Positions 3,726 through 63,619 of a stretch of 64,000 bases of DNA are shown one piece after another. Within the stretch, counting starts at the first letter, position 1. Every line of letters starts with the position of its first letter. The stretch is from a virus: the IMG/VR virus record IMGVR_UViG_3300045988_059494, positions 7,219 to 71,218 of that record; one strand, written 5' to 3'. The position numbers were made by a program, and so were the translations under genes. The notes beneath the pieces were generated by a model that saw only the letters and a list, made by a program, of their open reading frames with translations, did not search any database and was not told where the DNA came from.

Positions 3726-4280
3726 TTAACAAAACTGCCCAGCGATAAGATCAATAGCTTGAAAAAAGTTTCCTATATCTTGGTTTGCAAGTACCTGATA
3801 ATCAATATCCGTTAGATCGCTAAAATCTTGCTCGTCTGCGGAAAAGCGTCGAATAATTTCTTTAACATCTGGATCCTCTTCTCTTTTAAGCTGACGAAGC
3901 AAACGCTCTTTATCGCTAGCCTGTACATAATATACGGTTAAGTCAATAAGACCATCCTCCATAAGACAACGGATACCTTCTGGATTAAAGACACCAACAT
4001 TGATTTTGTCTTTTGATAAACTCGATAAAGCAGTGCCATAATGCCAGCCATTAAACTCTGTCGCTTCTAGCATATCACCATTTAATACCTTGGTAGTAAA
4101 TTCATCCACTGTCAAGAAATAATAGTTAACGCCATAGCGCTCTCCCTGTCGTGCAGGACGAGTAGTGCAACTAATGATCTCGTTAAATTTATCGGGGTAA
4201 CGTTTAACGAGAGCGTGAAGGATACTATCCTTCCCGCTTCCCGCCTTGCCGCAAATAGCAATTATTTTAGTTTTCTCCAT
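3726..4280 (-). CDS. guanylate kinase-like / deoxynucleoside monophosphate kinase
   Basis: P-loop GKAGSGKDS plus CTTRPARQGERYGVNYYF guanylate-kinase signature; probable start at MEKTK (track ORF 3726..4331 overlaps the upstream gene). Confidence 0.6.
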   Translation of the reverse strand: MEKTKIIAICGKAGSGKDSILHALVKRYPDKFNEIISCTTRPARQGERYGVNYYFLTVDEFTTKVLNGDMLEATEFNGWHYGTALSSLSKDKINVGVFNPEGIRCLMEDGLIDLTVYYVQASDKERLLRQLKREEDPDVKEIIRRFSADEQDFSDLTDIDYQVLANQDIGNFFQAIDLIAGQFC

Positions 4281-5673
4281 TATCTTCTTCCTCTCCTGTT
4301 GCTCGCTCGCTTCTAAGGATAAGCGAACCATCTGCTAATACCTCGTCAATATGATACAACTGATGTCTACCAGAACTTGCATACTTCTTGGTTACAAATT
4401 CATCACCACGACGAATACCCTGTACAACAATCATATTACCGCGATTGAACCAAGATTTCTCAATGACAGTCTTAGTACCATCACTATTTCGGCGGAATGT
4501 CTGTCTATCAAACAGCGAAAAATATTCCTGTCTAAACTTAACAGATACTACGCCAGTCGTTGTCAAGAGATATACAACACTCTTGGTTTTATTCTTTGCA
4601 ATACAAGTTCCGCAAATGCGGTTGAGCTTGTAAATTGGAATAAGAGATGCGCCTTTCTTGAAAGTCTTCTCAATAATCGGTTCCTCAGGAAGAGAAAAGA
4701 AGTTAACTAAACCATACTTAGCAGTATTTACATTACTTAATTCATGGTCGTGATAATAGAAGCAAAGAACTTCCATTTCCCAAGACGAGATGTTGCCACT
4801 AGCATACTTCTCCCAATCTTGCATAAAGATACGAGAGTTCAACTCATCAAGAATACTATCCTTATTCTCTTTAATCCAATCTCTAAAAATATCCATATAA
4901 CTCTGATAAACTTTATCCCAAGCCTTAATATTGATATACCAAGACTCGAGTTCACCATCAAGAAGTCCTTCACAATCAATCTCAGTCAAGAAATTAATCG
5001 CTCTTACATCAAGATGGTATCTCTCATGGTCAAATGGATCTTTACATTCAGCCTTTAAATATCTATTAAACTCAAATACTCGCTTTGGTAAAGCAAAAGT
5101 ATCATTCTTTGGAATTAAATCATAACGAATAAGACCCGGCATATTCTGCAAAGTTAATCGTTTCTTTTTGTCGCAAGTTAGCCACAAATATTCTACCATA
5201 GTCTTCTTGCGGTCTTTGAATTGATCGAACGCACCACCCTTAATAAGAGCAATCATAGCTTGCTTATTAGGAGCTATTCTATAATAGAAATCTATCATAG
5301 ATGCATATGGGCGATTTGCAATAATAGTCTTAATCAAATCGTTATTGACATTTGTTAAACCCTTTAAGCCAAACAAAATCTGATTATTCTCTGTATCGGG
5401 TTTAAAGCCAAGCTCAGAATGGTTAATATCAACAAGAGATACCTTAATACCCTTGTTACGAATTTCGCCAATCGCCTTTGCTAACTTTGTATAATCTGAC
5501 TGCTCGCTCTCATTTTCATCAATAGCACCACTATTAACGATAAGATATGCCGTATTCCAATACACAGGATTGAAATGTGTAGCAAGATAAAGAGTCTGCA
5601 TACCAACGAAGCTATAAGCAAGAGCATGAATAACGGAAAAACTATCGTGTTTACCCACTATTTCTAGTGGCAC
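4267..5673 (-). CDS. dnaE: DNA polymerase III alpha (DnaE) C-terminal portion (downstream half of split gene)
   Basis: Begins inside the conserved DnaE motif (GKHDSFSVIHALAYSFVGMQTLYLATHFNPVYW ~ NKSHsaAYa..YqTaylKahYP); the 6821..9334 ORF ends inside the same motif. Confidence 0.6.
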   Translation of the reverse strand: MPLEIVGKHDSFSVIHALAYSFVGMQTLYLATHFNPVYWNTAYLIVNSGAIDENESEQSDYTKLAKAIGEIRNKGIKVSLVDINHSELGFKPDTENNQILFGLKGLTNVNNDLIKTIIANRPYASMIDFYYRIAPNKQAMIALIKGGAFDQFKDRKKTMVEYLWLTCDKKKRLTLQNMPGLIRYDLIPKNDTFALPKRVFEFNRYLKAECKDPFDHERYHLDVRAINFLTEIDCEGLLDGELESWYINIKAWDKVYQSYMDIFRDWIKENKDSILDELNSRIFMQDWEKYASGNISSWEMEVLCFYYHDHELSNVNTAKYGLVNFFSLPEEPIIEKTFKKGASLIPIYKLNRICGTCIAKNKTKSVVYLLTTTGVVSVKFRQEYFSLFDRQTFRRNSDGTKTVIEKSWFNRGNMIVVQGIRRGDEFVTKKYASSGRHQLYHIDEVLADGSLILRSERATGEEEDNGEN

Positions 5674-6820
5674 AGACTATCTTTTACTATTAGCTTTTAA
5701 CTAATAGGATACCATTTCGGTTTTCAGTTGCTTCGTTTCCTAAAACAACGCTACGTACCAATAGTAGCCCTACTCCCAGTCTAACCCGGGATAGTCGTTA
5801 CAGGTTTCTTAAAGGATAAACAAGGTTATTATCTTTGAATGACTCTCCAATATTTATTCTTCTAACAGTTTCTTTAGAAGAACCATATAAATCAATTATT
5901 TCTTGGTAGGTCATATCAGTATGAAGCAGCGCATCTTTTATCTTGTCTGCCCTTATCGCTCTAACGTCTCTTTTTCGAATGGGATAAGTTGGATATAATC
6001 CTTTTTTTAATGTTCCAGCATTTATTTTCTTTACTGTGGAATATCCCATATCAAGTTGTTTAGCAATTTCTGCTAAAGATAAAGTAGAATTCGTTAGTAG
6101 TTCAATTAATTCGTCATAATCTGAATCATTCTTGTAATATTTATAGAGAGGATAATTTTGATTTTTGTCATAGAAATACAATCCATTATTGATGCTTGAA
6201 ATAAATGAAGCACTAATATTATACTTCTATTCTAACTCATAATAAGGAATACCTTCCTAGATTTCTTTTTTCAAAGAAGCTATTTGATCTTGTGATAAAA
6301 TAGAATTTCTAATTCTACTACCACCGCCAAGATCAGAATTATATCCCTCTCCATCTCCTCTAAAACTATTCTTTTCTTTTATCCAAAACTGTTCTCTTTC
6401 ATTCACAATATTTATATCATCTGTATAAATCTATTCTAAAACTTCAATTTCAAAATTGTCTATACCATATTGACGCATTTTACTGTGAATTAAATCGTTA
6501 TAAGAACTAGATTTAGAGTTTAAAGCACAAGAACGATGTTCTCTTATACGACGTTTTAAATTATTTGTTTGGCCAACATATTTGTGACCATTTATCTTGT
6601 TTGTGTAACAATATATGTAATACATTATATACCTCCATAGCATAATGTATTACCATGTTATCCTTTAAGACTTCCCACGGGATTATCATGGCAACACAGT
6701 TAGGATACTTTTTATATCCTCTATGTTACTTTAGAATTCCCCGTTAGCAATTAACAATTTTTGTCCAAAATTTTTAATTACCCTCGTGGTAAGCGAGTAA
6801 AATATCTAGGGGCAAGCATT
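5660..6820 (-). mobile_element. candidate group I intron (or free-standing HEG insertion) interrupting dnaE, carrying a GIY-YIG ORF
   Basis: ~1.16 kb between DnaE halves. Putative 5' exon ends GGT AAG TAT (GKY) followed by intron G; putative 3' end ...AUAGUG before GGT AAA CAC. A junction GKY|GKHDS would restore the conserved DnaE motif. Confidence 0.35.
5798..6643 (-). CDS. GIY-YIG homing endonuclease with 3 in-frame TAG codons
   Basis: N-terminal YIYCYTNKINGHKYVGQTNNLKRRIREH (GIY-YIG), middle EQFWIKEKNSFRGDGEGYNSDLGGGS, C-terminal HTH region; track ORFs 6431..6643 and 5798..6181 are in frame, separated only by TAGs. Confidence 0.7.
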
Positions 6821-9334
6821 TCACCCCATCTGCGGACCGAGACCAAATTTCCAGACATACTTACCTAGCTTCTCGGATTTCGCCGTATCCAAAACTTTCT
6901 GATGAAGCTCTGGAATTTTATTCATCTGTTTCTTACCAACAATCTTTCTTGCGGCATTCGCTTCAGCCAGACTAAAGTTACAAATATCTGGATCCCGCAA
7001 CATTTTCATTAGCTGCTCCTGAGAAGGAGGCACACCATAAGAAGATAAAAAGTAAGGTTCCAAAGTTTTCTGTTCTTGTTTAGTCAAGCCATTATTGTCC
7101 ATCTCTTTATACCAAAGAGAAATATCATGCTTATAACGAACATACTTTTCCATCGGAGTTTCTGCGCCCGGTTCAGAAGCCATAAGACGCATCAAACCAT
7201 TGGCATCCGCCATCTCTAACGGGTTATGCGGACGAATTTTCTTAGCTGCCTGTGCGCCTACTGCGCTATCAAACTGAAAACAACCAATTACATCATTGTT
7301 AGCCAGAGCGTTCCACATAGCTTCATCATCTTGCGGCAGGATAGATGGATGTAGATACTTATTATAGACCTCTCTAAGAGTTAAGTTTTGCTCAATAACT
7401 TTATCTGCTTGAAGCAGTTCAATGGTCTGAATGATAATATCCTGTACACTTGTTAGCAGGAAGTCATACTTTACGGAACCTGCGGCCTCTTGGTCATGCA
7501 GATCCCACTGTGTAATTAACGCGCCCTTAGGAGTTCGCATAACCGCGGCAGAGTCATAGATGTTTTCATCAAAAAGGATAACGCCAGAAGCGTGACTACT
7601 TCTTTTATTAACCATGCCTTGAATACGAATAATAATATCAAGCAAGCCTTCATACTGCGAAACCGCGGTTACAAATGCTTTAACAGGCTTTCTGCCTTTC
7701 TCTTGATTACCATTTACAACATCTTCAATCGGCCACAGGAAACCGCGCTCTTGAGGAATCAAAGAACTCAAGTATTGTGCTTCATCAACATCAATACCGT
7801 CGGGATATTCCTCAGAACGATAACCTCTACACGCAGTCAAGATTGCAGATTTTGTACCCTCTGTACCGAAAGTGCAAACCTGAATAAGACCAAGTTCTCC
7901 TCTTTCCTTGCGGATTTCGGCAAAAATCTTCTGAATTTTAGACGGCGCCAAGTCAAGATCAATATCGCCTAACTCAACACGTTCATCGTTAATGTAACGC
8001 CAGAAAGGTAAGTCCCACTCGAGGGGATCAAGCTGAGTAATACCAAGGAGATAATGGTTTAAAGCTGCACACGCAGAACCACGACCTGCGCCGACTGTAC
8101 TGCCGCAATTCCAGAACAAATCTACATAGTGCTTCAATGTATTAGGATATGCGAACATACAAGTCTGCAATTTCTCGCCAATGACTCTCTTTACTCTTGC
8201 TTCTTCTTCGAGTCTTTCCCAATACTCTTTCTTGTGGATAAGACCTTTCTCCTGCATTGCAATGATGCACTCCTGAATCCAATATTTCTCTTGCTCGTTA
8301 TCAGATTCAATCAAGGAAGTTAGTACCTTATAATCATCACGGAAAGTATCCATCATATCCGCGGGAACGCGAGACCAGTCGCTGCAATTATAATGAGTTA
8401 CTGCTACTTCTGGGACAGACTGATGCTTCTCAAGAGAATAAAACTCAATCTTATCCTTGATCTCATTAGAATTGTCATAGATAGAGTAAACTGTATCTAA
8501 GTCAAAGCTAGACAAAAGTAAATCAGTTGTCTCTTGTTCAGTCATAAGATATGTGAATTCATAGAATGAATCAACTTCTCGCTCACCACCCTTAGAATTA
8601 AGATAAGACTTGTGAACATATCTATCTTCTTTAGTTAGATAATGAGCATCCGTACCAACGCACATCTTTACATCAAATACTTGGGCAATTTTGAGCATTC
8701 TCTTGTTTGCAGTAACCTGATCACTGTTGCTTGCAGGAGCACACTCAACATAGAAGTTATCCTTGCCAAAAACGCTAATACAAAATTCCATAAAGTCAAT
8801 AATCTGTCTATGGTAACGATACGCATTATCAGTATCATTAGCTTTTTCGCAAGCATCGAGGTTAAGAATAGAATTACCTAATTCACCACCAATACACGCA
8901 GTCGTGCCGATAATGTCTCCCTTAAATCTCTGCATAACTTCCTGTAATTCTGATTTCAAAAGCGGGACTCGTTCCATACCACGATCATAGTAACTATTAG
9001 TCCACGCAATAGAAGACAGCTCTTTAAGACCTCTGTATCCATGCTCATTCTTTGCAAGCAAAATAAAATGATAATACTTTTGTCCCATATCTCGAGTATC
9101 GGTAAGATAAATCTCATTACCCAATGCTACAGTAAACTCAGGATGAGTTTCCTGAAGTTTCTTTGCATACTTATTTACTCGCATATGTGAACTTAAGGAT
9201 TCGTGATCTGTGATGGCAATACCAGTCAAACCAAGCTCAATAGCCTTATCAATTAGCTCTTCTGGATGATTGATACAATCGAGAAGGCGCAAATTACTAT
9301 ACTCAGTATGAGCATGGTTGTTAAAATAACTCAT
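6821..9334 (-). CDS. dnaE: DNA polymerase III alpha (DnaE) N-terminal portion: PHP domain plus polymerase core
   Basis: N-terminal PHP motif HAHTEYSNLRLLD...GIAITDHESL; 837 aa; ends within the conserved GKYGFNKSH-like motif. Confidence 0.8.
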   Translation of the reverse strand: MSYFNNHAHTEYSNLRLLDCINHPEELIDKAIELGLTGIAITDHESLSSHMRVNKYAKKLQETHPEFTVALGNEIYLTDTRDMGQKYYHFILLAKNEHGYRGLKELSSIAWTNSYYDRGMERVPLLKSELQEVMQRFKGDIIGTTACIGGELGNSILNLDACEKANDTDNAYRYHRQIIDFMEFCISVFGKDNFYVECAPASNSDQVTANKRMLKIAQVFDVKMCVGTDAHYLTKEDRYVHKSYLNSKGGEREVDSFYEFTYLMTEQETTDLLLSSFDLDTVYSIYDNSNEIKDKIEFYSLEKHQSVPEVAVTHYNCSDWSRVPADMMDTFRDDYKVLTSLIESDNEQEKYWIQECIIAMQEKGLIHKKEYWERLEEEARVKRVIGEKLQTCMFAYPNTLKHYVDLFWNCGSTVGAGRGSACAALNHYLLGITQLDPLEWDLPFWRYINDERVELGDIDLDLAPSKIQKIFAEIRKERGELGLIQVCTFGTEGTKSAILTACRGYRSEEYPDGIDVDEAQYLSSLIPQERGFLWPIEDVVNGNQEKGRKPVKAFVTAVSQYEGLLDIIIRIQGMVNKRSSHASGVILFDENIYDSAAVMRTPKGALITQWDLHDQEAAGSVKYDFLLTSVQDIIIQTIELLQADKVIEQNLTLREVYNKYLHPSILPQDDEAMWNALANNDVIGCFQFDSAVGAQAAKKIRPHNPLEMADANGLMRLMASEPGAETPMEKYVRYKHDISLWYKEMDNNGLTKQEQKTLEPYFLSSYGVPPSQEQLMKMLRDPDICNFSLAEANAARKIVGKKQMNKIPELHQKVLDTAKSEKLGKYVWKFGLGPQMG

Positions 9335-9396: not shown

Positions 9397-10558
9397 TCAA
9401 TCTTTCAACACCAAAGTTAATTTCTGCGCCGCACGAGTACAAGCTGTGTAAAGCCACCGAGCATGATCTGCTTGTCTTAATACTTCCTCGACTACTAATA
9501 CCTTATCATACTCGCTACCTTGGGATTTATGAGTCGTGATACAATAGCCATAGTCAAATTGCTCCGGTCGCAACTGCTTAGGAAACAGTCGAAAGTTTTC
9601 TCGATTTACTGTTGTTTCTTTGGTGGTAATAAGTTTCCAATCCATCAAGAGGTCATGAAATGTCTGATCTCTCTTATCAGCATTATCAATCGTCTCAGGG
9701 GTAAAATCAATTAAACACATAGGATTAAGCCACTTATTTGGGACGGTAGCAATCTTATCAATAGTACCAATAGTGCCATTGACGAGAGCGTCTCCAGTCT
9801 CAGTAATCTTATCCCAGTTGTTTTTAAGACAAATAACTTTATCTCCAACAATAGGATTAGGAATGTCTTCACCATAGCGCATATTGCGGTAATAATTATT
9901 TAATGTATGACGAGTAATATTTTTCCCGCAAAGAATCTGATCTGCCCATGTAAACATACCGTCACACATCTCTCTATGACGCACAATATTGATTTCAGTG
10001 CCTTTATAAGGCTTGATAAGTTTACCTTCTCGAATATCTGCGGACAGACGAATAATCTCGCTTTCTGCAGCCTGGCGCATAATTTCATCGAGGAAGATGT
10101 GCGGACGTTCAAGAATGCCATTTTCTTCGCCAATAGGCGGTAACTGACCGGGATCGCCGCAAGCAATTACATAAATGCCATGCGACAGCAGCAAATTCCA
10201 CATAGGCTTAGGTAGCATAGATACCTCGTCAACTACGATAATATCATAATCAGAAATATTATCTTTAGGGATATGAATAAAGCTGCCATCTGCGCGCGGA
10301 ACAGATTTATACAAGAGTCTATGTGCAGTCATAGCAGTGGGACAACCCTTATTTCTTAGTACCTGTGCAGCTTTGCCGGTATAAGCGATATATCCAACTC
10401 TTTCGGGATCAATATCGAGAGCGGAGATAATAAACTTGATAAGAGTAGATTTACCTGTTCCTGCTTTCAGGCGTAGCCAGCGATCACGGTATAATTTTCG
10501 TTTGCGTGATATCTGGCTACAGCAATTTTCAAACCCTCTTCTTGTTTTTTAGTTAATT
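9397..10558 (-). CDS. RecD/Dda-like superfamily 1 helicase; needs -1 frameshift or ~8 nt hop at GCC TGA just before Walker A
   Basis: ATG at 10556-10558 gives MELTKKQEEGLKIAVARYHANENYTVIAGYA then TGA. The Walker A (AGTGKSTLIKF) and the rest of the helicase (track ORF 9397..10332) are in the -1 frame, with no start codon of their own. Confidence 0.55.
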
Positions 10559-11088
10559 CCATCGGGTTTTACTTCCTCCTTTTCTTTTAAATTTAATTCA
10601 TCTATTGTCCACATATTATCATGCAATTCTTTATGACAATTAGAACATAATAATATACATTTTTTACTTTCTTCAACTGCTTCTTGCAACTTAAAGTGGT
10701 CATTACTTATAGTAAAATCCTTTTGTGATGGGTCTAAATGATGAAATTCTAATGCTTTTAGGCATTTACTATAGCCGCATCTTACACATTGACCTCCGCG
10801 TTGCTATTTTATTTTAGACAGAAAGGCCCCTCTTGTTAGCTAAATTCCTTCTGACATACAGTCATAACAACAACTTCTCTAATTAGCCGCAGCACTTTTA
10901 GGGGTGAAAGTTTTTCCACATATAGGGCATTTTTTTTCTTTCAGACCCGAGGCTCCTGTAATTTTTCTCTCTTGATTACGTTGCTTTCTAGCTTGATACA
11001 TACAAGCATCACTACAATATTTTTTTGTGGATTTTATAGCTTCAAACTCTTTTCCACAAACTGTGCATATATTTGTCATAAAAATCAT
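10549..11088 (-). CDS. HNH homing endonuclease with 3 in-frame TAG codons
   Basis: C-terminal CGYSKCLKALEFHHLDPSQKDF...LLCSNCHKELH (HNH); track ORF 10879..11088 ends at TAG and the frame continues; paralog of 53357..53896 with a TAG at the aligned position. Confidence 0.65.
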
Positions 11089-11123
11089 TCCTTCTATATA
11101 TAGTAACTTATCAGATTCTATAA

Positions 11124-11261
11124 TATATAGAAATATATGTAGATAAATTTACTTGATTTGTCCAAGGGTTTTATCAAACTGCGTACCACTAATTACAGTA
11201 TATGCTTCTCCGTTATGGTATCTATCAACGGCAATCTTGAGTCCTTCCTCTTGTTTACGTG
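11124..11261 (-). pseudogene. diverged duplicate of the helicase N-terminus (46 codons), truncated exactly before the Walker A position
   Basis: MELTRKQEEGLKIAVDRYHNGEAYTVISG... ~75% identical in protein to the 10558 copy but divergent in DNA; flanks the HNH gene. Confidence 0.4.
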
Positions 11262-11464
11262 TTAGTTCCATTTTCCTTCTCCTTAATTGCTGCATCTACT
11301 TTAGCTTTTAAATTATATAAATGCTCCAATCCCACATCATAAAGTAATCTGGTATCCATCGGCAATGTAATCAAATCGCCATTTAGTTCATGTGAGAGTT
11401 GCTTATGTAGTTGTGCCATTTCTGAAATATTCATGCTAGTTAAATCTACATATAAAATATTCAT
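11255..11464 (-). CDS. hypothetical protein (69 aa)
   Basis: ORF track only; overlaps the helicase-fragment copy in another frame. Confidence 0.3.
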   Translation of the reverse strand: MNILYVDLTSMNISEMAQLHKQLSHELNGDLITLPMDTRLLYDVGLEHLYNLKAKVDAAIKEKENGTNT

Positions 11465-19883: not shown

Positions 19884-20188
19884 TATTATTCTCCCACTGT
19901 ATTAGAATAGCCTACGACGTTAAAATTGCTAGCTAACCAACAATCTAAATCATCTACAACGGCGACGCATCTCTTGCCTCTAAAGTTATCTATATAGTAT
20001 GAATAGCTAATAAATCCCAAGTTTGATGGAAGCGGCCCCACTTCTGTGATAAATCGTTTTACCTGAGAAGAAGGAGCATTACCAACAAATAAAATTTGCT
20101 TATCGGGATTTTCTTTAGCAAGCTAATTAGCATATCGCATTAAGGTAGCTGTTTTACCAGCTCCTCTATTTGTAATTACCTTAAACAT
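19865..20188 (-). CDS. P-loop NTPase, hypothetical; in-frame TAG at codon 22
   Basis: GGAGG SD, MFKVITNRGAGKTATLMRYAN-TAG-LAKENPDKQILFVGNAP...; no ORF in track because of the TAG. Confidence 0.45.
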
Positions 20189-21099
20189 TAGGAGCCTCCT
20201 CTGGTACTATTTAGACCATAATCTTTTGTTTTATAGAACTCAATCCAATAAGTCTCTCGCTCATTCAACTAAGCTCGAGGCACTTCTTCCAAAACTTCGA
20301 ACATGAAATTATGCTGTCCAGATTTTTGCATTGCCTAATATAACTTATTAGTCGCTGGACCGTAAGCTAAAGAAGTTTTAATGTGTTGCCTAAAACGCTC
20401 TTTAATATCAACAGATTGGCCAATATAGGCCTAACCAGTGATTAGATTAGTAATCTTATAGATACCACAGACTTTAGAGGCTTTTGGAAATAACTTACTC
20501 ATAAGTGCATCATAAGATGGCTTATAATAAGTTTCCCAAATTAGCTTATCAATAGCTTCTTTCTTGAAGAAACGAGTCTATAATTCTCGCAACAGACTTA
20601 TATCATTAACACTTAAATCATCAATAGTTAGTCGATAATAGTCCTAATTTGCGGCACTCTCTTCTTGACGCTATTGAGCTTGGATATACGCTAACTATTT
20701 AGCTTCTAACTGCTCCAGTTTGTCTTGTTCTACTAGAACCTACTAGGCAATTTCCGCGAGTTCTTTTTCCTTTTGCTGTTCAAACTCTTGATAGACTTTT
20801 TCTAATTTTTCAGTTTCTCGCGCATATATTGTCTTTGCGCTCTCTTTGGCTTGCTGCTCTGCGTTTTCCCGCATTTTAGTAGCTGTATCAATTAAAGAGT
20901 TGATAACTTCATTCTACTAATCTATATTAGCTTTTAGCTACATTAAATCTAGATTATGTCGTTCAATATCTGATTCAATGCGCTCATTTTCTGCCTATCG
21001 CTCTCTATTTATTGATACTACTTTAAGCCGATCATTGCGGAGGTGGACAGTATATCCTGCCAAAGCAGCAATAATTAAACCTAATAGTAAATATATCAT
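20188..21099 (-). CDS. TM helix + coiled-coil + C-terminal GIY-YIG domain protein; 13 in-frame TAG codons
   Basis: MIYLLLGLIIAALAGYTVHL (TM), Q/E-rich coiled coil, then GIYKITNLITG-TAG-AYIGQSVDIKERFRQH...ETYWIEFYKTKDYGLNSTRGG (GIY-YIG). Single frame from ATG 21097-21099 to TAA if TAG is sense. Confidence 0.6.
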
Positions 21100-21110
21100 A
21101 ATTAAAAGAA

Positions 21111-21140
21111 GTCGGTAAGAGATATTCTCTTACCGACTCT
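21111..21140. terminator. hairpin terminator
   Basis: AGTCGGTAAGAG/CTCTTACCGACT inverted repeat after the 21148 gene stop. Confidence 0.5.
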
Positions 21141-42518: not shown

Positions 42519-43784
42519 TCATACTTCCTGTGCTTCCTCCATATCCGGTGCATTTTCAGTCTCCTTAATGATGCCTTCAAGTACCTTAAACTCGTAGGTC
42601 TTAGACTTGAAAGCAGTGAAGGAACGACGATTTACAATACGAATTACAACGCCTTCCTTGACATGAGTTTTGCCAATTGGGTCTGCAAGATCCTCGAAGT
42701 AATCATTGATGCGCTTCAACAGATCATCTACGGTAGTAAACTCAAAGTTGTCAATCACTGGTACTCGATTAAAGCCATGCTCATCACACCATGCAGTAAT
42801 CTCGTCAGGAGTCCACTCACGCTCGCCGTTCTCAGAAGTGATGCGGTAAATCCACATATGAGACTCACCCGGCTCGCATCCATAAGAGAAAATAGAACGC
42901 TTGCCGAACTGTTTCTGGAAAGCCTTGTCTTTCAGCTTCGAGTTATCGCCAATCGGCATGATAGTATCTCCATCGCCGAGACCATAGTAACCTACAACCT
43001 CGTAAAAGACTTCCATACCCGGCTCAAGGAACGGCTTCAGCGCCTCGTGATGCGGCAGTCGGAACTTATTATCACCGTAGTAGCCACCATCATCCTCAGA
43101 GACTACACAACGACGAGTACCAAGTACATAAGCCTGCTTAGTACGCTTCTTCATATGAAACAGGCGACGGAAGAAACCATTCGGCAGCTCCGCAACAGTA
43201 TTCATAGAACGCTGAGAAGTACCATGCATTTTAAGAGTCATGTTTAGCTGATCGCCCGGACGGAACGCATCAAGATTGTAAGCAAGCTGTGCAGTATCAA
43301 TGTGCATTGCAAAATCCGGATATACAACGCCCTCTGCCTTACGACCCTTATAAGAGGTCTTAGCCACAGTCTGCGGATACTTGCGCTTCGGGATATACTT
43401 GCGGCAGAACTCTTTATCATTGACGGTATTTACCTTATCACCATCCTCCCAGTGCTGATCGCCAAATACTTCATAGACATGGTCAAGAGAAATGACAATA
43501 CCAGAACTCTGGTTGCCACGGAGCTTAATTGCCCGGATGTGAGAGCTATTTTCCAAATATCCGCCTTGAGGAGTGCCATCGAGATTTTTTCGATATAAGG
43601 TGAAAGCATCGCCGAACCATCTCTCAATCTCTCCGTCTGTAGGAAGATAAAGCACTAACTCATTTTCTTTCATGTTGGACCCAACAATAACTCCTTCATT
43701 AAAACAATCTGCAAGCCACAGATTATCAGAATTGGGATCTTTATGCAGATTATTCAATTTTGTCACTAAAGCATAGTAAGCCAT
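42519..43784 (-). CDS. ATP-dependent RNA ligase (Rnl2-like nucleotidyltransferase with N-terminal extension)
   Basis: Motif I KMHGTS (KxHGxN), motif IV EGVVIR, motif V FKSK; 421 aa. Confidence 0.7.
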   Translation of the reverse strand: MAYYALVTKLNNLHKDPNSDNLWLADCFNEGVIVGSNMKENELVLYLPTDGEIERWFGDAFTLYRKNLDGTPQGGYLENSSHIRAIKLRGNQSSGIVISLDHVYEVFGDQHWEDGDKVNTVNDKEFCRKYIPKRKYPQTVAKTSYKGRKAEGVVYPDFAMHIDTAQLAYNLDAFRPGDQLNMTLKMHGTSQRSMNTVAELPNGFFRRLFHMKKRTKQAYVLGTRRCVVSEDDGGYYGDNKFRLPHHEALKPFLEPGMEVFYEVVGYYGLGDGDTIMPIGDNSKLKDKAFQKQFGKRSIFSYGCEPGESHMWIYRITSENGEREWTPDEITAWCDEHGFNRVPVIDNFEFTTVDDLLKRINDYFEDLADPIGKTHVKEGVVIRIVNRRSFTAFKSKTYEFKVLEGIIKETENAPDMEEAQEV

Positions 43785-44499
43785 TTAACTCATGTTCCTC
43801 CTCTTTACTAATTCGTTTATATATAAAACCTTTATATGTGTTTCTCTGCCCATTTAATACTCGATAAATTGCTTTATCAGTTTTTGCATCTGGACAAAAT
43901 TCTCTATATGCTGAAATTGCAGTAGGAAAAATAGCTAATAATTGACCATCTTTATCATACTTCGCAATCGGCTATCTTCTTGCTTCCAACGCCTTTTTCT
44001 TTGCATCTTCTCGATGACCATCTTGATAGGCTTGTTTTAATTTTTCACTTCGCTCTTTTTTTAAGGAAGGATTGTCGATAAACTTCTATTTTAGAGAGTT
44101 GCTAATCTTTTCGTTTCTTTTGTTACTATAAGTTCGATTTTTAGCAGCTAGAGTCATATGCTGTCGATACTCTGGATCTTCCCATAGCGACTTAACAGAC
44201 TCGCCTATCTGTTTTCTAACTTCTTCCGTTTGATAGTTTCCGCCTGGAGAGACATTGTAACCAAAACTTGTATCTAAAAGATTTAATTCTTTGATTGTGT
44301 CTATTTCTTTTTGTCGAATTAAATCTTCATTATCGGATTCTAATATCACTTCTTTAGTTACATTTTCCCAGCCATATTTTTCAATAGCGTAGCCGACACG
44401 CTATCCTTTATATCTCCCCGATGCTCGCTGTTCAATGGAATTTCTAGTAATTCCGCAGTATTTCTTCCCATTTGGGAAAGTGTATAAATAACAAATCAT
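43750..44499 (-). CDS. GIY-YIG homing endonuclease (I-TevI-like architecture) with 3 in-frame TAG codons
   Basis: AGGAGG SD; MICYLYTFPNGKKYCGITRNSIEQRASGRYKG-TAG-RVGYAIEKYGWENV (GIY-YIG), NUMOD-like repeats, C-terminal DNA-binding tail; track ORF 44086..44349 is the middle fragment. Confidence 0.65.
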
Positions 44500-44595
44500 C
44501 TAGATAACCTCCTAAATCTTTCTACTTATATTAAAAATTACTAGGAGGTTATTTAGAAGTTTTGTCCAAACTTTCTTCCTTATAATAAGCTCTTA

Positions 44596-51816: not shown

Positions 51817-53391
51817 TTAGTGAATCTGCGCGTAGCGCTCACTGTCCAGCTTCTCAAGAACAAGAGCAAGTCCGTCCTTGCCGCTCAGAATCTGCTGGAT
51901 CATAACAGGGCTGAAACCACTTACGTAGCTAAAGCCGTCCCCAATCGCGGGAATGTTGTTATTACGCGCGTTCAGGTTCCAAAAGACACAACTCGGCATC
52001 TTGTAGCCACACCGCGCCCACTTAGCCTTCATGTCTTCAAACAGAGTGTTGATCCGCTGCATTTCCATGCCACGACCCCAGCCGCCAGTAACATGGTTAC
52101 TCGTTACACAGCGATCAAATTCCATATCAGAAAAGATATATACACGCTCAGGCATATCTTCTGCACGAACAGACTGCTTCATAGCGGTCGCAAGCAGCAT
52201 ATCGAAAACAGCTTCGATATTAGTATTCGCACCCCAATCCGCACTCACGCAGCGGCACAGCTTATCCGTAATGTCTGCACCCTCGAACTTTACCAGCTTC
52301 GGAGAGCCAGAAAAAGTAATGAAGTGGTTAGCAAACGGACCGTGCGCCTTATCTGCAATGTATGCGCCCATAGAAACAGCCGCTTCCATAGGAACACCAG
52401 ACATAGAGCCAGAAACATCGACAACTGCGATGCCGTTCTCTACATTGTCGCCATAGAAATTGGGCAGATTATCCCAATACTTCTGGAGCATTAGACGCTC
52501 AGAGTCTTCCAGACTCTTACGGCGAGAGCTGAAGGCACGATGAGCAATGTCATGCGGATACAGCGCACCAGCGTTAACGGTAGTTTCAGTATCCTTAGCA
52601 AAAGCCTCATACTTTGCCTTAATCATATCGCGACGCGCAAATGCGTTACGATAGATAATACCTGCACGAGAAGGAATTTTATCAAACTCAATCTCGTCCC
52701 AACGGTTTTCAGACATAAGGCGTTCGACAATGCGGATGCGCTCGCGCAGTACAGACAAGGTCTTGCGGTACTCCTTCGGAGTCATATGGAAATGATTACG
52801 AGAGATCGTCGCCAGACGACGCGACTCCTTAGAAGAAGTGTTCTCAGACTTCAGCCACTTAGCAAGAAGCGACGGAGTTTTACAAGAAACATCGAGCGCA
52901 AGCTGATGTCTCATAATCTTGAAAGCCTCATCTTCCAGAGGAGTGTCGACAAAGACGTAGAAATCATCCCAACGACCATACTCGGGCACGAACTTCAGGT
53001 TACGGCGCATTGCTGCGGTTTCATTGAAGGCAAGCCAACGAGAAACCACGCGGAAGAAACGACGTTCTCCCTGTCCACCACGCACATCGCGCAGATAAAA
53101 CAGACACTTCAGTGCATGAGCCTCGTCCTCATCAAAAGCAGCCTTGAACAGAGTGATGCAATCTGCATCGGTGCGCTGACGATAAGCGCCTCCAAGCGCA
53201 AAAAGATCCATAAGTCCATTTAGCGTAGACTTATGAGTAATAGCGCCATTCTCAGTCAGAGTGAAGTTAGTGTCCTGCTTCATAGCGTTCATAAAAGTAT
53301 TCATTGTATCAATCTCCTTTTGATTTTTAGTCGCTCCCTTGGACAAGGGAGATAGTTTATTGATAATGTTCTTCTGCGTGACAATTTGCAC
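51817..53391 (-). CDS. CobT-like protein with C-terminal vWA domain (MIDAS DVSGSMSG)
   Basis: vWA motif AVVDVSGSMSG; 524 aa; partner of the MoxR-like ATPase. Confidence 0.5.
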   Translation of the reverse strand: MQIVTQKNIINKLSPLSKGATKNQKEIDTMNTFMNAMKQDTNFTLTENGAITHKSTLNGLMDLFALGGAYRQRTDADCITLFKAAFDEDEAHALKCLFYLRDVRGGQGERRFFRVVSRWLAFNETAAMRRNLKFVPEYGRWDDFYVFVDTPLEDEAFKIMRHQLALDVSCKTPSLLAKWLKSENTSSKESRRLATISRNHFHMTPKEYRKTLSVLRERIRIVERLMSENRWDEIEFDKIPSRAGIIYRNAFARRDMIKAKYEAFAKDTETTVNAGALYPHDIAHRAFSSRRKSLEDSERLMLQKYWDNLPNFYGDNVENGIAVVDVSGSMSGVPMEAAVSMGAYIADKAHGPFANHFITFSGSPKLVKFEGADITDKLCRCVSADWGANTNIEAVFDMLLATAMKQSVRAEDMPERVYIFSDMEFDRCVTSNHVTGGWGRGMEMQRINTLFEDMKAKWARCGYKMPSCVFWNLNARNNNIPAIGDGFSYVSGFSPVMIQQILSGKDGLALVLEKLDSERYAQIH

Positions 53392-53896
53392 ATAGTAATA
53401 AACATTTATCTACTTCTTCATAAAGTTTATCTATATTGTCGAGTGTTACTCCAATTTCGGCTATACCGAAATCTTTTTGGGTTGGGTCAAGATGGTGAAA
53501 TTGTAAAGCTCCTTCGCATTTATCATAACCACAACGCTCACATTTTCCGCCTTTATAAAGAATTAGCTAGTGTTTGATGGCTTTTTGACGAGCCTTACCG
53601 CTATCTTGGCTTGGAGAGCAATCATAACAATAAATGCGATTATTGACTTTTGTTTTATATTTCTTCCCACAAATCGGGCATATCTTCTCAATCTCTTCTT
53701 GAGCAATATTGGGATTAGTACATTTACCACACGACTAAGTGGGCCTGCTACTTGTTAAACTTGAACCTCTAATTTCCTTTTCAGTTCCACAGTCACATCT
53801 GCATTTCCAATAGGTCTTACCATTGCGGTTTGGCGCTCTTTCAATAACGACTAACTTACCAAAACGCATACCAGTTAAATCTCTTAAATTTGGCAT
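53357..53896 (-). CDS. HNH homing endonuclease with 2 in-frame TAG codons (paralog of 10549..11088)
   Basis: SD GGGAGG; CERCGYDKCEGALQFHHLDPTQKDF...LLCANCHAEEH; the TAG in KAIKH-TAG-LILYKGGKCERCGY aligns with the TAG in SKIK-TAG-QRGGQCVRCGY of the paralog. Confidence 0.65.
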
Positions 53897-53979
53897 TTTA
53901 ATTCCTCCCTTACTATATATAAGAGAAGACCTTAATAGACAAACGGATTTTGTCCAATGTTAGTTTATCTTTTTGTCTA

Positions 53980-59552: not shown

Positions 59553-59626
59553 TGGTGCGGGGCCGCGGATTCGAACCGCTTTTTCAGCCTTTTAACGCTG
59601 ATGGTCTACTTATAGCCTAGCCCCGC
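59553..59626 (-). tRNA. atypical tRNA-like gene with an apparent 8-nt anticodon loop (GUUAAAAG); anticodon unresolved (UAA, AAA or quadruplet)
   Basis: Acceptor GCGGGGC/GCCCCGC, T-loop GGTTCGAATCC, A73, CCA; anticodon stem UCAGC/GCUGA encloses 8 nt; weak D-stem. Confidence 0.4.
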
Positions 59627-62452: not shown

Positions 62453-63313
62453 TCAAATTGTTGTAACAAAAGCATTATATCCCTTGTTAGCTAGATCATG
62501 AACTACTCTTGCTGCGTTAGTCTTCACAGAAAACGCACCAACTTGTACCTTCCAATAGCTACCAACCTTGCGGACATAAGCGTTTTTATATCCTGCATTG
62601 ATTGTGTCTGGAAGAGCTTTAATCTTAGCCAAAAATGCGTTTGCATTAGCTTTCTTGCTAAATGCGCCAAGCTATACTCTATAAATAACTTTTGGCTTTA
62701 AATAAACAGCCATTACATTATCAACAGGACGATTAGTAAATGCTTTTGTGATACACTTACCATCGTGTAATACCTTGGTACTTCCACCTCCATCAAGGTT
62801 AATAGCATAATCAACCTTGAGAGTCTGCAAGAAAGATTGCATTTGCGAGAAGTTCATACCTGGAGATTCAATAGCTACAATAAAGATATTCTCTTTATTA
62901 TAAGCTAAAATAGTTCTTCTAGCTTTGTAGTTAATCTCAGAAGCAATAGTAATAGGAACTGCGGCGCCGGCCTTAATCAAAACTGGATAGCCACTTACGA
63001 AGTCTTCAAACTTCTCTTGACCAATTACACCGTATCTTAGCTCTCCATTTATAGTTCCAAATCCTTCTCTGTAAGAAGAATTAGAGCTAATGATTTTTCC
63101 TTCATCAGAATAATTCAAGATAGTTGAACCATTGCTCATGTTAAAGAAACCACCATTTGAAATAATAGAAGGCTTAACAGCGCAGCTATCATAATAGGCT
63201 TTCAAAGTCTAACGAGGCTATTGACATAATGCCATATCAAACTTTGAAATCTCTGTCTTAGGGATTTCTACAACAGTGATATAAGAATAGTTAGTTGGAT
63301 TATAAATCTTCAT
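62453..63313 (-). CDS. cell-wall-associated protein: phosphodiester-glycosidase-like (NAGPA, NLDGGGST) domain plus C-terminal SPOR domain; 3 in-frame TAG codons
   Basis: SD AAGGTGA; MKIYNPTNYSY...ALCQ-TAG-PR-TAG-TLKAYYDSC... (track ORF 62672..63205), then ...VIYRV-TAG-LGAFSKKANANAFLAKIKALPDTINAGYKNAYVRKVGSYWKVQVGAFSVKTNAARVVHDLANKGYNAFVTTI-TGA (SPOR). Confidence 0.5.
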
Positions 63314-63375
63314 TTTATCACCTTCCTTAATATTTATAAAAGAGAAGATAATTAAATTAAAGAAATATCCCCAAA

Positions 63376-63451
63376 TGGTAGTCCAGATAAGACTTGAACT
63401 TATGCCCTTTCGATTATCAATCGAACGCTCTACCGACTGAGCTACTGGACT
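63376..63451 (-). tRNA. tRNA-Ile(GAU)
   Basis: Acceptor AGTCCAG/CTGGACT, D-arm GCTCAGTCGGTAGAGC, anticodon loop UUGAUAA, A73, CCA. Confidence 0.7.
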
Positions 63452-63454
63452 ATA

Positions 63455-63542
63455 TGGCGCGGAGGGAGAGATTCGAACTCTCGGACCCTCGCGGGTCACT
63501 AGTTTTCTAGACTAGCGCCTTAAACCGCTCGGCCACCTCCAC
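63455..63542 (-). tRNA. type II Ser-like tRNA (G73, long variable arm) with unusual anticodon loop CUAGAAA (formal anticodon AGA)
   Basis: Acceptor GTGGAGG/CCTCCGC (one U-G), anticodon stem CTAGT/ACTAG; same architecture as tRNA-Ser(GGA) but with A at position 34. Confidence 0.45.
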
Positions 63543-63619
63543 TTATTATCAAGACTCTATTATAGTCTAATTAACGGTTAGATGCTCAATAAGCTAAAGA
63601 ATTGCTGTTAGAGTCTTAA

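Follow-up and report, generated by a model that had tools for sequence, protein, structure and literature searches.

How can a phage retain a helicase gene that is broken exactly within the codons of its Walker A motif, with the two coding parts in different reading frames and the gene of an endonuclease lying upstream of the break? This question is raised by a locus within 64,000 nucleotides (nt) of viral DNA, referred to here as the window, which corresponds to positions 7,219-71,218 of IMG/VR record IMGVR_UViG_3300045988_059494 and whose own numbering is used for all of its coordinates. From the sequence and its open reading frames (ORFs), all the genes of the helicase region lie on the minus strand. 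The first 31 codons joined to the helicase, termed N31, start with an ATG at 10562-10560, encode MELTKKQEEGLKIAVARYHANENYTVIAGYA (...VIAGYA) and end in a GCC codon that is followed at once by TGA. The remainder, the helicase body, begins with GTGKST in the frame that is -1/+2 relative to N31, and its first ATG, GTG or TTG is found only at 10332. An earlier reading of the window, made without database searches (the sequence-only reading), had proposed a helicase split between an N-terminal ORF and a Walker A body in another frame, with no start codon before an internal Met far downstream. Reading of the ORFs bears out both points, and the N-terminal ORF also stands, albeit with a start codon that had been misplaced at 10556-10558.

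The explanation that best accommodates the related sequences, and that is considered probable, is that a cassette composed of an HNH homing-endonuclease gene, a replacement helicase 5' end and a short gap has entered the gene, and that the gap would be decoded by a short translational hop. There is good support for the architecture itself, in which a mobile HNH cassette brings both a substitute 5' end and a gap presumed to confer immunity.

The helicase and its conserved motif

The helicase body matches the Pfam families AAA_30 (5.7e-22), AAA_19, UvrD_C_2 (5.2e-16) and PIF1, together with the solved structures of RecD2 (3e1s), Dda (3upu) and 9kwf, the last of which carries GYAGTGKTT. On these matches the protein is classed as a superfamily 1B (SF1B) helicase of the Dda/RecD2 type, with the Walker A motif, the helicase motifs and a C-terminal UvrD_C_2 domain. 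Around 70 gapless homologues are invariant in the form G[YFL]A-G[TSV]GK[ST], and none of them has an insertion, or a T, V or S, at the position of the junction. When the gap is removed, N31 and the body of the gapped genes give GYAG(T/S/V)GKST, as is seen in these homologues and in the solved relatives. For the window, the distance from the last codon of N31 (GCC, 10472-10470) to the last triplet of the gap (GCA, 10464-10462) is 8 nt, and joining at these codons would yield VIAGYAGTGKST. No second copy of the helicase is present within the 64-kb window.

Among more distant relatives, the homologue in Bacillus phage vB_BpuM-BpSp (KT895374.1, 49560-51075) is matched in two pieces over about 1.5 kb, which suggests that this helicase is interrupted in a different way, and in AR9 and PBS1 the helicase match begins only at residue 27.

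Insertion of the cassette into an empty site

The comparison with helicases of related phages that the sequence-only reading had proposed provides intact genes against which the insertion can be defined. A homologue search returned 385-residue helicases that are 95-97% identical and uninterrupted. The N-terminus of one of these, P0001 (97% related), is exactly the sequence of the upstream N-terminal copy in the window (copy 1), and is then continued as ...ISGYAGTGKST. Moreover, two viral contigs, L101 and L102, with 99% identity over the helicase body, have an uninterrupted AGT GGT TAC GCA/GGA ACA GGT AAA at this point, the sequence of the gapless L101-type site being GGTTACGCAGGAACAGGTAAATC. 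In an alignment of the window with L101, the left flank including copy 1 shows about 96% and the right flank with the body 96.5% DNA identity, and the two sequences are separated by a single 718-nt insertion, 11178-10461, whose boundary is ambiguous by up to 4 nt, with GCAG present at both ends. The endonuclease-driven insertion at the Walker A site that had been suspected from the window alone is thereby matched by an empty allele.

The two N-terminal copies are 709 nt apart, where the sequence-only reading had placed a second copy about 700 nt upstream beyond the HNH gene, and they share 71% DNA identity with many synonymous differences. Copy 1 encodes MELTRKQEEGLKIAVDRYHNGEAYTVISG followed by unrelated residues, its frame entering the cassette and ending at TAA 11151-11149, and relative to L101 it has lost one T (GGTTAC to GGTAC). 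Since the protein sequence that it encodes matches the start of intact P0001 without a difference, copy 1 is, on this sequence evidence, the displaced and decaying 5' end of the resident gene, copy 2 (N31) having arrived with the HNH gene. Hence the duplication noticed earlier is upheld with a refinement: the upstream copy is the native one and the copy attached to the body is foreign. It is probable that copy 1 serves as the left homology arm for homing.

The cassette is found at the identical site in L001, L014 and L020. The first two of these come from another clade, with no more than about 85% helicase identity to the window, and carry the window-type cassette with their own native copy 1 upstream (...ISGYA/V and two stop codons). 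This second clade is polymorphic at the same site, with L001 and L014 occupied and L010 and L105 empty. In L003, from the same clade, copy 1 and most of the HNH gene have gone whilst N31 and the gap are kept; copy 1 is also missing in L017, L137, L151 and L156. The junction seen in the window is identical in the independent assemblies L001, L003 and L014. Comparison of these sequences demonstrates the insertion and its mobility among lineages, and the junction, which had been regarded as the leftover of a conversion or insertion event, is instead a conserved and evolving part of a mobile cassette.

Recurrence and grammar of the gap

The first leads to further cases were gene calls starting MTAHRLL, MKAGTGKST or MTGTGKST (P0032, P0041, P0043, P0023 and P0070). 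From these, an HNH-protein search, helicase-based and pattern scans of IMG/VR and a pattern scan of genome bins, a catalogue was built; both pattern scans required GGCTACGCY followed by TRA and left the last gap triplet unconstrained. The genome-bin scan gave 70 matches, most of which were due to chance and 6 of which were real. With two filters applied during collection, the absence of an internal stop and the presence of an L[TS]..Q motif, the catalogue comprises 62 distinct helicase genes with a gap, and 30 different gap sequences are represented, among them TAACT, TGACT, TAATGCA, TAAATGCT, TAAGTT, TAAGCA and TAAAGCA.

The gap obeys a simple grammar. The take-off codon is either GCC (35 of the 62 genes) or GCT (27), and it is followed directly by TAA (45) or TGA (17) in every gapped gene, including those from samples that were not selected by pattern. 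The length of the gap is 5 nt in 24 genes, 6 nt in nine, 7 nt in 12 and 8 nt in 17, such that all three frame relations to the body occur, in-frame gaps included (GYA, stop, A/T/V, G.GKST). The last triplet of the gap is only ever GCA, GCT, GCG, ACT, ACC, GTA, GTT or TCC, and its middle base is C in 24 and T in six of the 30 distinct gaps and never a purine. All 30 distinct gaps thus end in a triplet of the form GCN, ACN, GTN or TCN, although only 25% of the possible triplets have these forms. If this triplet is regarded as the landing site of a hop, it is GCN in 15 of the 30 distinct gaps, the GCA of the window among them, and in the others it is ACY, GTW or TCC, one mismatch away from an Ala codon. 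Removal of the gap alone restores the canonical motif in all 62 cases and in every frame class.

The gap changes by insertions and deletions between close relatives, and the gaps of L156 and L157 are one transition apart (GCT versus ACT). At 5-8 nt it is too short to hold a separate Shine-Dalgarno-like element. In the window a mini-hairpin of 4 bp, CCUG AAAG CAGG, can form across the gap (10471-10460, minus strand), and in L139 it could have 5 bp.

Integrity of the two coding parts

Of 50 complete bodies, 48 are open, with lengths of 325-386 codons. In the 62 instances, collected with the filters given above, N31 is always 31 codons long, with a start codon, a strong Shine-Dalgarno sequence and no internal stop, and between lineages its nonsynonymous differences are fewer than its synonymous ones. 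L156 and L157, both of which are gapped and have no HNH gene, differ in their bodies at 25 nt and in only 2 amino acids. These features speak for a gene that still functions. The integrity of both coding parts is seen directly in the sequences, as are the gap grammar and, described below, the hairpin and the association with HNH genes.

The hairpin before the take-off codon

The mRNA immediately upstream of the take-off codon can fold into a hairpin. In the window this is formed by a 16-nt inverted repeat (10520-10505 and 10488-10473), the 3' arm of which ends at the Tyr codon just before GCC. The outer stem pairs GUAGCCAG (10520-10513) with CUGGCUAC (10480-10473), and the inner stem AUCACG (10510-10505) with CGUGAU (10488-10483). 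The predicted folding energy is -19.4 kcal/mol for the 60-nt segment and -26.2 kcal/mol for the 96-nt context (z = -2.7). For 16 distinct gapped genes of the first set the mean minimum free energy is -18.7 kcal/mol, as against -8.8 kcal/mol for 52 gapless genes (Mann-Whitney p=7e-8), and closure of the hairpin exactly at the take-off boundary is found in all 16 of the former and in 2 of the latter (Fisher p=1e-13). In the larger set such closure occurs in 41 of 41 distinct gapped genes.

The outer stem, GUAGCC.G/C.GGCUAC, requires that Ala be encoded (AVARY) where E, K, N or Q is found in the gapless genes. A compensatory double change, GUAUCCAG/CUGGAUAC, is present in L151, and in L023, L025, L190 and L233 the 5' arm lies two positions upstream and is drawn from other codons that encode other amino acids. 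The inner stems occur in two registers, for which reason RNAalifold recovered only the invariant outer stem and the folding of individual sequences was more informative. The compensatory, shifted-arm and register variation argues, at the level of sequence comparison, that the structure itself is maintained.

The helicase of L007 (4001-5158) has neither gap nor HNH gene, and its N-terminus and hairpin are of the cassette type and close to N31 of L002. It may be a revertant that has shed the gap and endonuclease, or an ancestral donor form.

The HNH endonuclease and movement of the cassette

The HNH ORF lies between the two N-terminal copies, separated from copy 1 by an AT-rich leader and overlapping the start of N31 with its 3' end. 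It matches the HNH endonuclease family phrog_2255 (E=8.5e-26) and displays the motif CxxC...FHHLDP...N...CxNCH, with a match to Pfam HNH_2 that falls just under threshold. The ORF contains three in-frame TAG codons with first bases at 10881, 10842 and 10806, and has no TAA or TGA before its terminal TAA. L001 and L014 share these TAG positions, and the residues aligned with them in the homologue from L017 are K, Q and E. Its best cultured relatives are HNH genes of the FelixO1 type with about 33% identity, and blastn and tblastn found no close cassette in cultured phages.

The endonuclease and the gap are associated. In the sample gathered by helicase homology, which is unbiased by the gap pattern, an HNH motif is located within 1 kb upstream of 4 of 9 gapped alleles and of 0 of 64 gapless alleles (Fisher p=1.2e-4). 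The HNH-protein search led to further cassettes whose HNH proteins are only 52-69% identical (L017/018, L020, L023, L024, L025 and L100), and each of these divergent cassettes repeats the layout, with a 31-codon ORF that closes on ...GYA and runs straight into a stop, and with G(T/S/V)GKST only a few nucleotides further on. The cassette tail, AAAGGAGGAAGTA..., is conserved 5' of the N-terminal ORF in other gapped loci, some without an HNH gene included. Among the 51 gapped loci with enough upstream sequence, 29 have no adjacent HNH gene and have kept this tail, and it follows that the endonuclease has been lost there whilst the gapped gene persists. Furthermore, N31 is identical in L017 and L018 while the bodies to which it is attached differ at 31% of synonymous sites, which reveals horizontal movement of the cassette. 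The gap lies just where the insertion took place and, by analogy with MobA, would interrupt the target of the endonuclease, so that genomes bearing it would escape cutting.

The HNH gene was also considered as a resident gene upstream of intact helicases, an idea that was rejected, the ORF upstream of the L007 helicase being methyltransferase-like. An HNH paralogue with 46% identity and two in-frame TAG codons is found elsewhere in the window (53357-53959, minus strand), between tRNA-Cys and a TROVE-like gene, where it is free-standing and has no gap arrangement downstream. A similar HNH gene adjoins a TROVE gene in the crAss-like phage cr112_1.

A proposed short translational hop and its alternatives

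In the scheme proposed here, a free-standing HNH cassette has entered the Walker A codons of a phage Dda/RecD2-like helicase gene, bringing with it the HNH gene, its own ribosome-binding site and a replacement for the first 31 helicase codons. The 3' edge of the cassette has left 8 nt, TGAAAGCA, that would stay untranslated between the codons for the Ala of GYA and the Gly of GTGKST, and the gap would break the recognition site of the endonuclease within a sequence that is intolerant of substitutions or extra residues. At the end of the 31 codons the ribosome would come to a pause, its A site occupied by UGA and its peptidyl-tRNA-Ala paired with GCC. This tRNA would then unpair, the mRNA would slide by 8 nt, and re-pairing on the GCA that forms the last gap triplet would allow decoding to resume at GGN. 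The 3' arm of the hairpin would be inside the ribosome at take-off, and its re-formation would pull the mRNA forward. The product of such a hop would be the canonical ...YTVIAGYAGTGKST... helicase, with an expected junction peptide ...YTVIAGYAGTGK or ...NYTVIAGYAGTGK. The sequence-only reading had offered a -1 frameshift and an 8-nt hop from GCC to GCA as alternatives. The hop is favoured because gaps of 5, 6, 7 and 8 nt defeat any single direction of frameshift, and because bypassing restores the motif in all of the related gapped genes. A further point in its favour, suggestive and not corrected for linkage, is that in 5-nt gaps the third base of the take-off codon equals that of the landing triplet in 20 of 24 genes; GCT...CT and GCC...CC both occur within a single N31 clade.

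An unlikely alternative, though the one that survives best, is that the cassette has simply inactivated a dispensable helicase, that the gap is an immunity scar and that the ORFs are intact only because the invasion is recent. The cassette is clearly mobile, as judged from the identical N31 of L017 and L018 on diverged bodies, the dda gene of T4 is non-essential, and two gapped bodies (L204 and L220) are shortened. However, cassettes whose HNH proteins retain only 52-69% identity have all kept the 31-codon ORF, its start, its Shine-Dalgarno sequence, the immediate stop and the constrained last triplet, and more than half of the gapped genes have lost the HNH gene and still have intact bodies. 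The 25 nt and 2 amino-acid differences between L156 and L157 also stand against inactivation, and a cassette that kills its target has no reason to carry a replacement 5' end or a conserved hairpin. Nor do the data bear out a simple pseudogene, a possibility that the sequence-only reading had raised against itself.

Somewhat less likely again is conventional recoding according to frame class, with -1/+2 shifting for gaps of 5 and 8 nt, +1 shifting for 7 nt and readthrough for 6 nt, giving proteins with two to three extra residues (GYA-LKA-GTGKST in the window). Read in the body frame, the last triplet encodes only small residues (A, T, V or S), and some of the products would still fit [AG]xxxxGK[ST], both of which are compatible with this possibility. 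Against it, one architecture would need three unrelated mechanisms, no slippery sequence is present, and tRNA-Ala cannot re-pair at -1 (CGC) or at +1 (CCU/CUU). Moreover, none of the roughly 70 gapless homologues has an insertion, or a T, V or S, at the junction, and the indels seen in the gap between close relatives would alter the protein.

It is very unlikely that the helicase is made in two pieces, with the 31-residue peptide released, the body produced by reinitiation nearby and the two assembled. An overlap of the NTGA type would permit this in some genes, CTG overlapping the TGA in the window and TTG doing so in L003 and L100, where it is used by gene callers (P0023 and P0070). Genes that are split by HNH elements and work as two subunits are also known (nrdA of phage Aeh1; T4 genes 39/60). 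Most gaps, however, offer neither ATG nor GTG nor TTG as a start for the body, the TAA-type gaps giving CTA, TTA or CTT, and termination-reinitiation was rejected as being feasible only for TGA-type gaps in one frame class. Such a split would, in addition, sever the P-loop between strand beta-1 and GTGKST, and it leaves the constrained last triplet and the hairpin unexplained.

Highly improbable is the possibility that the 718-nt insert is a self-splicing group I intron with copy 1 as the true exon 1. The same phage does have a group-I-like intron with a GIY-YIG gene in DnaE, with U before the 5' splice site and a terminal G, and in the window copy 1, the HNH ORF and the body share one frame. 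Yet no Rfam match was obtained at the gathering threshold or at E<=10, a search by which the probable DnaE intron was likewise missed, and there is no exon-final U anywhere within the ambiguous GCAG boundary. Because of the 1-nt deletion in copy 1, splicing would fail to restore the frame, the five loci listed earlier have no copy 1 at all, and the 3' end of the insert consists of a ribosome-binding site and an ORF with no ribozyme core. A specific splice, GGU/...CUG/AAA, was rejected since it gives ISG-KAGTGKST where the native sequence is ISGYAGTGKST (P0001, L101). The splice reading also fails in that the shared frame stems from the 1-nt deletion, L001 and L014 would splice into a stop and many loci have no copy 1. 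Finally, an indel introduced by sequencing or assembly, the other doubt that the sequence-only reading had voiced, can for practical purposes be set aside, as the identical junction and layout recur in independent assemblies from different samples and 62 distinct related instances are known, so that neither chance nor sequencing error is responsible.

Several observations weigh against the hop. The hop and its efficiency are deduced from sequence, and for the stop-codon rule only the smaller samples that were not collected by pattern are free of bias. Half of the distinct gaps end in a triplet that is only near-cognate for tRNA-Ala, and L001, which has a window-type cassette, has GTA there. 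The third-base match in 5-nt gaps may be due to close linkage and not to selection. Neither a take-off stem-loop of the gene 60 type nor a mini-Shine-Dalgarno sequence is conserved, and by inspection most gaps have no equivalent of a stem-loop with the take-off codon in its 5' arm. The gapless gene of L007 shares the hairpin, and portions of the inner stem turn up in gapless genes as well, such that inheritance, and not selection for recoding, could account for part of the hairpin. The bodies of L204 and L220 stop after about 105 codons and may represent decaying genes or a second interruption by another mobile element. With horizontal spread, the divergence of the bodies may partly predate insertion, which makes the argument from nonsynonymous and synonymous differences weak, and N31 could be refreshed by recombination with resident genes. 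With these points considered, the broader proposition is still favoured, if a little more cautiously than the explanation of the locus itself: that this is an independent second natural bypassing system, in which hop sites of 5-8 nt in helicase Walker A codons, each defined by an Ala take-off codon with a stop behind it, a near-cognate landing triplet and the conserved 5' hairpin, have been spread by, and have outlived, an HNH endonuclease, with the gap giving immunity, and which is widespread in uncultured gut and rumen phages.

Layout of the locus and other features of the window

The features of the locus are collected in Table 1. A scan for promoters and terminators gave nothing above background.

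Table 1. Features of the helicase locus in window coordinates, listed in the 5' to 3' direction of the minus strand.
Feature	Position	Strand	Details
RecJ-like DHH gene	13142-11559	minus	first in 5' to 3' order of the locus
69-codon ORF	11464-11255	minus	between the RecJ-like gene and copy 1
Copy 1, displaced native helicase 5' end	11179..11271	minus	ATG 11271 to ...ACGCAG 11179
Mobile cassette	10461..11178	minus	718 nt; 5' leader, HNH gene, replacement helicase 5' end and gap
HNH homing-endonuclease gene	10549..11088	minus	179 codons; terminal TAA 10551-10549
Shine-Dalgarno sequence for N31	10575..10580	minus	AGGAGG, within the 3' end of the HNH coding region; read from the sequence
Copy 2 (N31), cassette-borne helicase 5' end	10470..10562	minus	31 codons; followed by TGA 10469-10467
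mRNA hairpin	10473..10520	minus	inverted repeat; 3' arm ends at the Tyr codon preceding take-off
Coding gap	10462..10469	minus	TGAAAGCA, 8 nt; TGA 10469-10467, AA and GCA 10464-10462
Helicase body	9397..10461	minus	GGA ACA GGT AAA TCT ACT (GTGKST)..., 354 codons; TGA 9399-9397

TAG is seemingly not used as a stop codon in this phage, about 60 minus-strand genes of the window ending in TAA or TGA. The in-frame TAG codons cluster in homing-endonuclease genes and in an amidase/SPOR lysis-like gene (an endolysin-like ORF, 62453-63559, with TAG at 62674). No tRNA with a CUA anticodon is present among the 12 tRNAs of the window. Two further minus-strand ORFs have in-frame TAG codons: a frame of 314 codons at 20188-21129, with 13 TAG and no TAA or TGA, has a coiled-coil-like N-terminal and a GIY-YIG-like C-terminal part, and a GIY-YIG endonuclease-like ORF at 43750-44592 has five.

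The gene for DnaE (DNA polymerase III alpha) is encoded on the minus strand in two parts, 6821-9334 and 4267-5676, interrupted by about 1.1 kb (6820-5677). The interruption carries a GIY-YIG ORF (6649-5798) with three in-frame TAG codons, and its boundaries fit those of a group I intron (...AUG GGG U / GAAAUG......ACACG / AU AGU UUU), joining of which restores the GYSFS of the intact gene in L007. In L002 (1416-5354) DnaE is split elsewhere by tandem endonuclease genes (GIY-YIG and HNH_3/NUMOD4).

A tRNA-like gene at 59553-59626 on the minus strand has an 8-nt anticodon loop (GUUAAAAG), is assigned the 4-base anticodon 'taaa' by ARAGORN and scores 31 bits against the Rfam tRNA model. It could be a tRNA of the frameshift-suppressor type. 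Its candidacy as decoder of the helicase gap was rejected, as its possible anticodons, UAA and UAAA, match no gap.

Significance

To our knowledge, T4 gene 60 and its homologues, all representing one topoisomerase gene, are the only cases of efficient programmed bypassing described for bacteria and phages. If the present interpretation holds, the combination of a homing endonuclease with an untranslated immunity gap would represent a general solution for sites that tolerate neither insertions nor mutations of the recognition sequence. It would likewise show that a target gene can be kept working by a carried duplicate of its displaced 5' end, which is of interest for the biology of homing endonucleases. 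The helicases would also offer a minimal natural model, with a short hop, a single hairpin and 30 gap variants, in which the driving of sliding by mRNA refolding behind the ribosome, and the extent of mismatch tolerated on landing, could be approached. For annotation, gapped helicases are currently called as truncated genes or as orphan ORFs of 31 residues.

Comparison with known systems

The closest parallel is the bypass of T4 gene 60 together with the HNH homing endonuclease MobA, which is reportedly the subject of work by Bonocora and colleagues in 2011. Literature searches did not find a report of a comparable helicase hop or cassette. In both systems a single cassette moves an HNH gene together with an untranslated insert, the latter placed at a coding site of high conservation, and a new 5' coding segment carried by the cassette replaces the displaced target (homR with MobA, N31 here). 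Both have a stop directly after the take-off codon and a stem-loop in the upstream mRNA, and the proposed landing triplet of the helicases would, as in gene 60, be cognate or near-cognate to the tRNA that left the take-off codon. In both, too, the endonuclease is often lost whilst the gap stays, and presence or absence is polymorphic between near-identical genomes. The MobA element with the 50-nt gene 60 bypass has been described by Manning and Atkins as a mobile cassette that is protected from nicking by the insert rather than by point differences, and in which a stop or hungry codon follows the take-off codon; this cassette is considered to be exclusive to the myovirus Topo2L gene and the bypass cassette 'remains unique' (bioRxiv 10.1101/2022.08.31.505936). 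Pairing of the exiting mRNA has been proposed to drive forward movement in gene 60 (10.1101/2022.08.31.505936; 10.1101/2024.12.09.627546).

The differences are equally clear. The target here is the Walker A site of a Dda/RecD-like helicase rather than the topoisomerase Topo2L, the gap is 5-8 nt instead of 50 nt, and the take-off codon is Ala GCY in place of Gly or Asp. No conserved take-off stem-loop, mini-Shine-Dalgarno sequence or AU-rich spacer is seen in the helicases, whereas the 5' hairpin is strictly conserved in them and poorly conserved in the relatives of gene 60. The HNH protein is FelixO1-like (about 33% identity to its best cultured relatives), which points to a different HNH lineage, and a duplicate 5' end is supplied while the old one decays, as opposed to a split into two working subunits. 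The cassette resides in uncultured phages from gut and rumen, in which TAG does not serve as a stop. Lastly, bypassing in gene 60 has been proven by experiment whereas the helicase hop is proposed from sequence.

Intronless homing, as with SegF, SegG and MobE or the splitting of the Aeh1 nrdA gene by mobE, likewise places a free-standing endonuclease in or beside a conserved gene of DNA metabolism, with presence or absence among relatives and co-conversion of the flanking sequence. Those elements avoid self-cleavage through sequence polymorphism or gene splitting, in contrast to the helicase cassette, and we know of none that combines a short untranslated gap with a duplicated 5' end.

With regard to decoding, the release factor 2 gene prfB also has a shifty stop, where an A-site stop slows decoding and the P-site tRNA moves, but there the shift is a fixed +1 on CUU U with an upstream Shine-Dalgarno sequence, whereas in the helicases the frame relation varies and there is no slippery overlap. 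Short-range hopping of tRNA over a stop or hungry codon in Escherichia coli, which Weiss and colleagues in 1987 and O'Connor and colleagues in 1989 are said to have described, is a further parallel. In both cases the peptidyl-tRNA quits its codon, or would do so, when the A-site codon is slow to be decoded, and finds a matching codon, in any frame, a short distance downstream. The E. coli examples are synthetic or adventitious and inefficient, whilst the site in the helicases, which are replication genes, has been conserved in many lineages of phages and comes with a dedicated hairpin.

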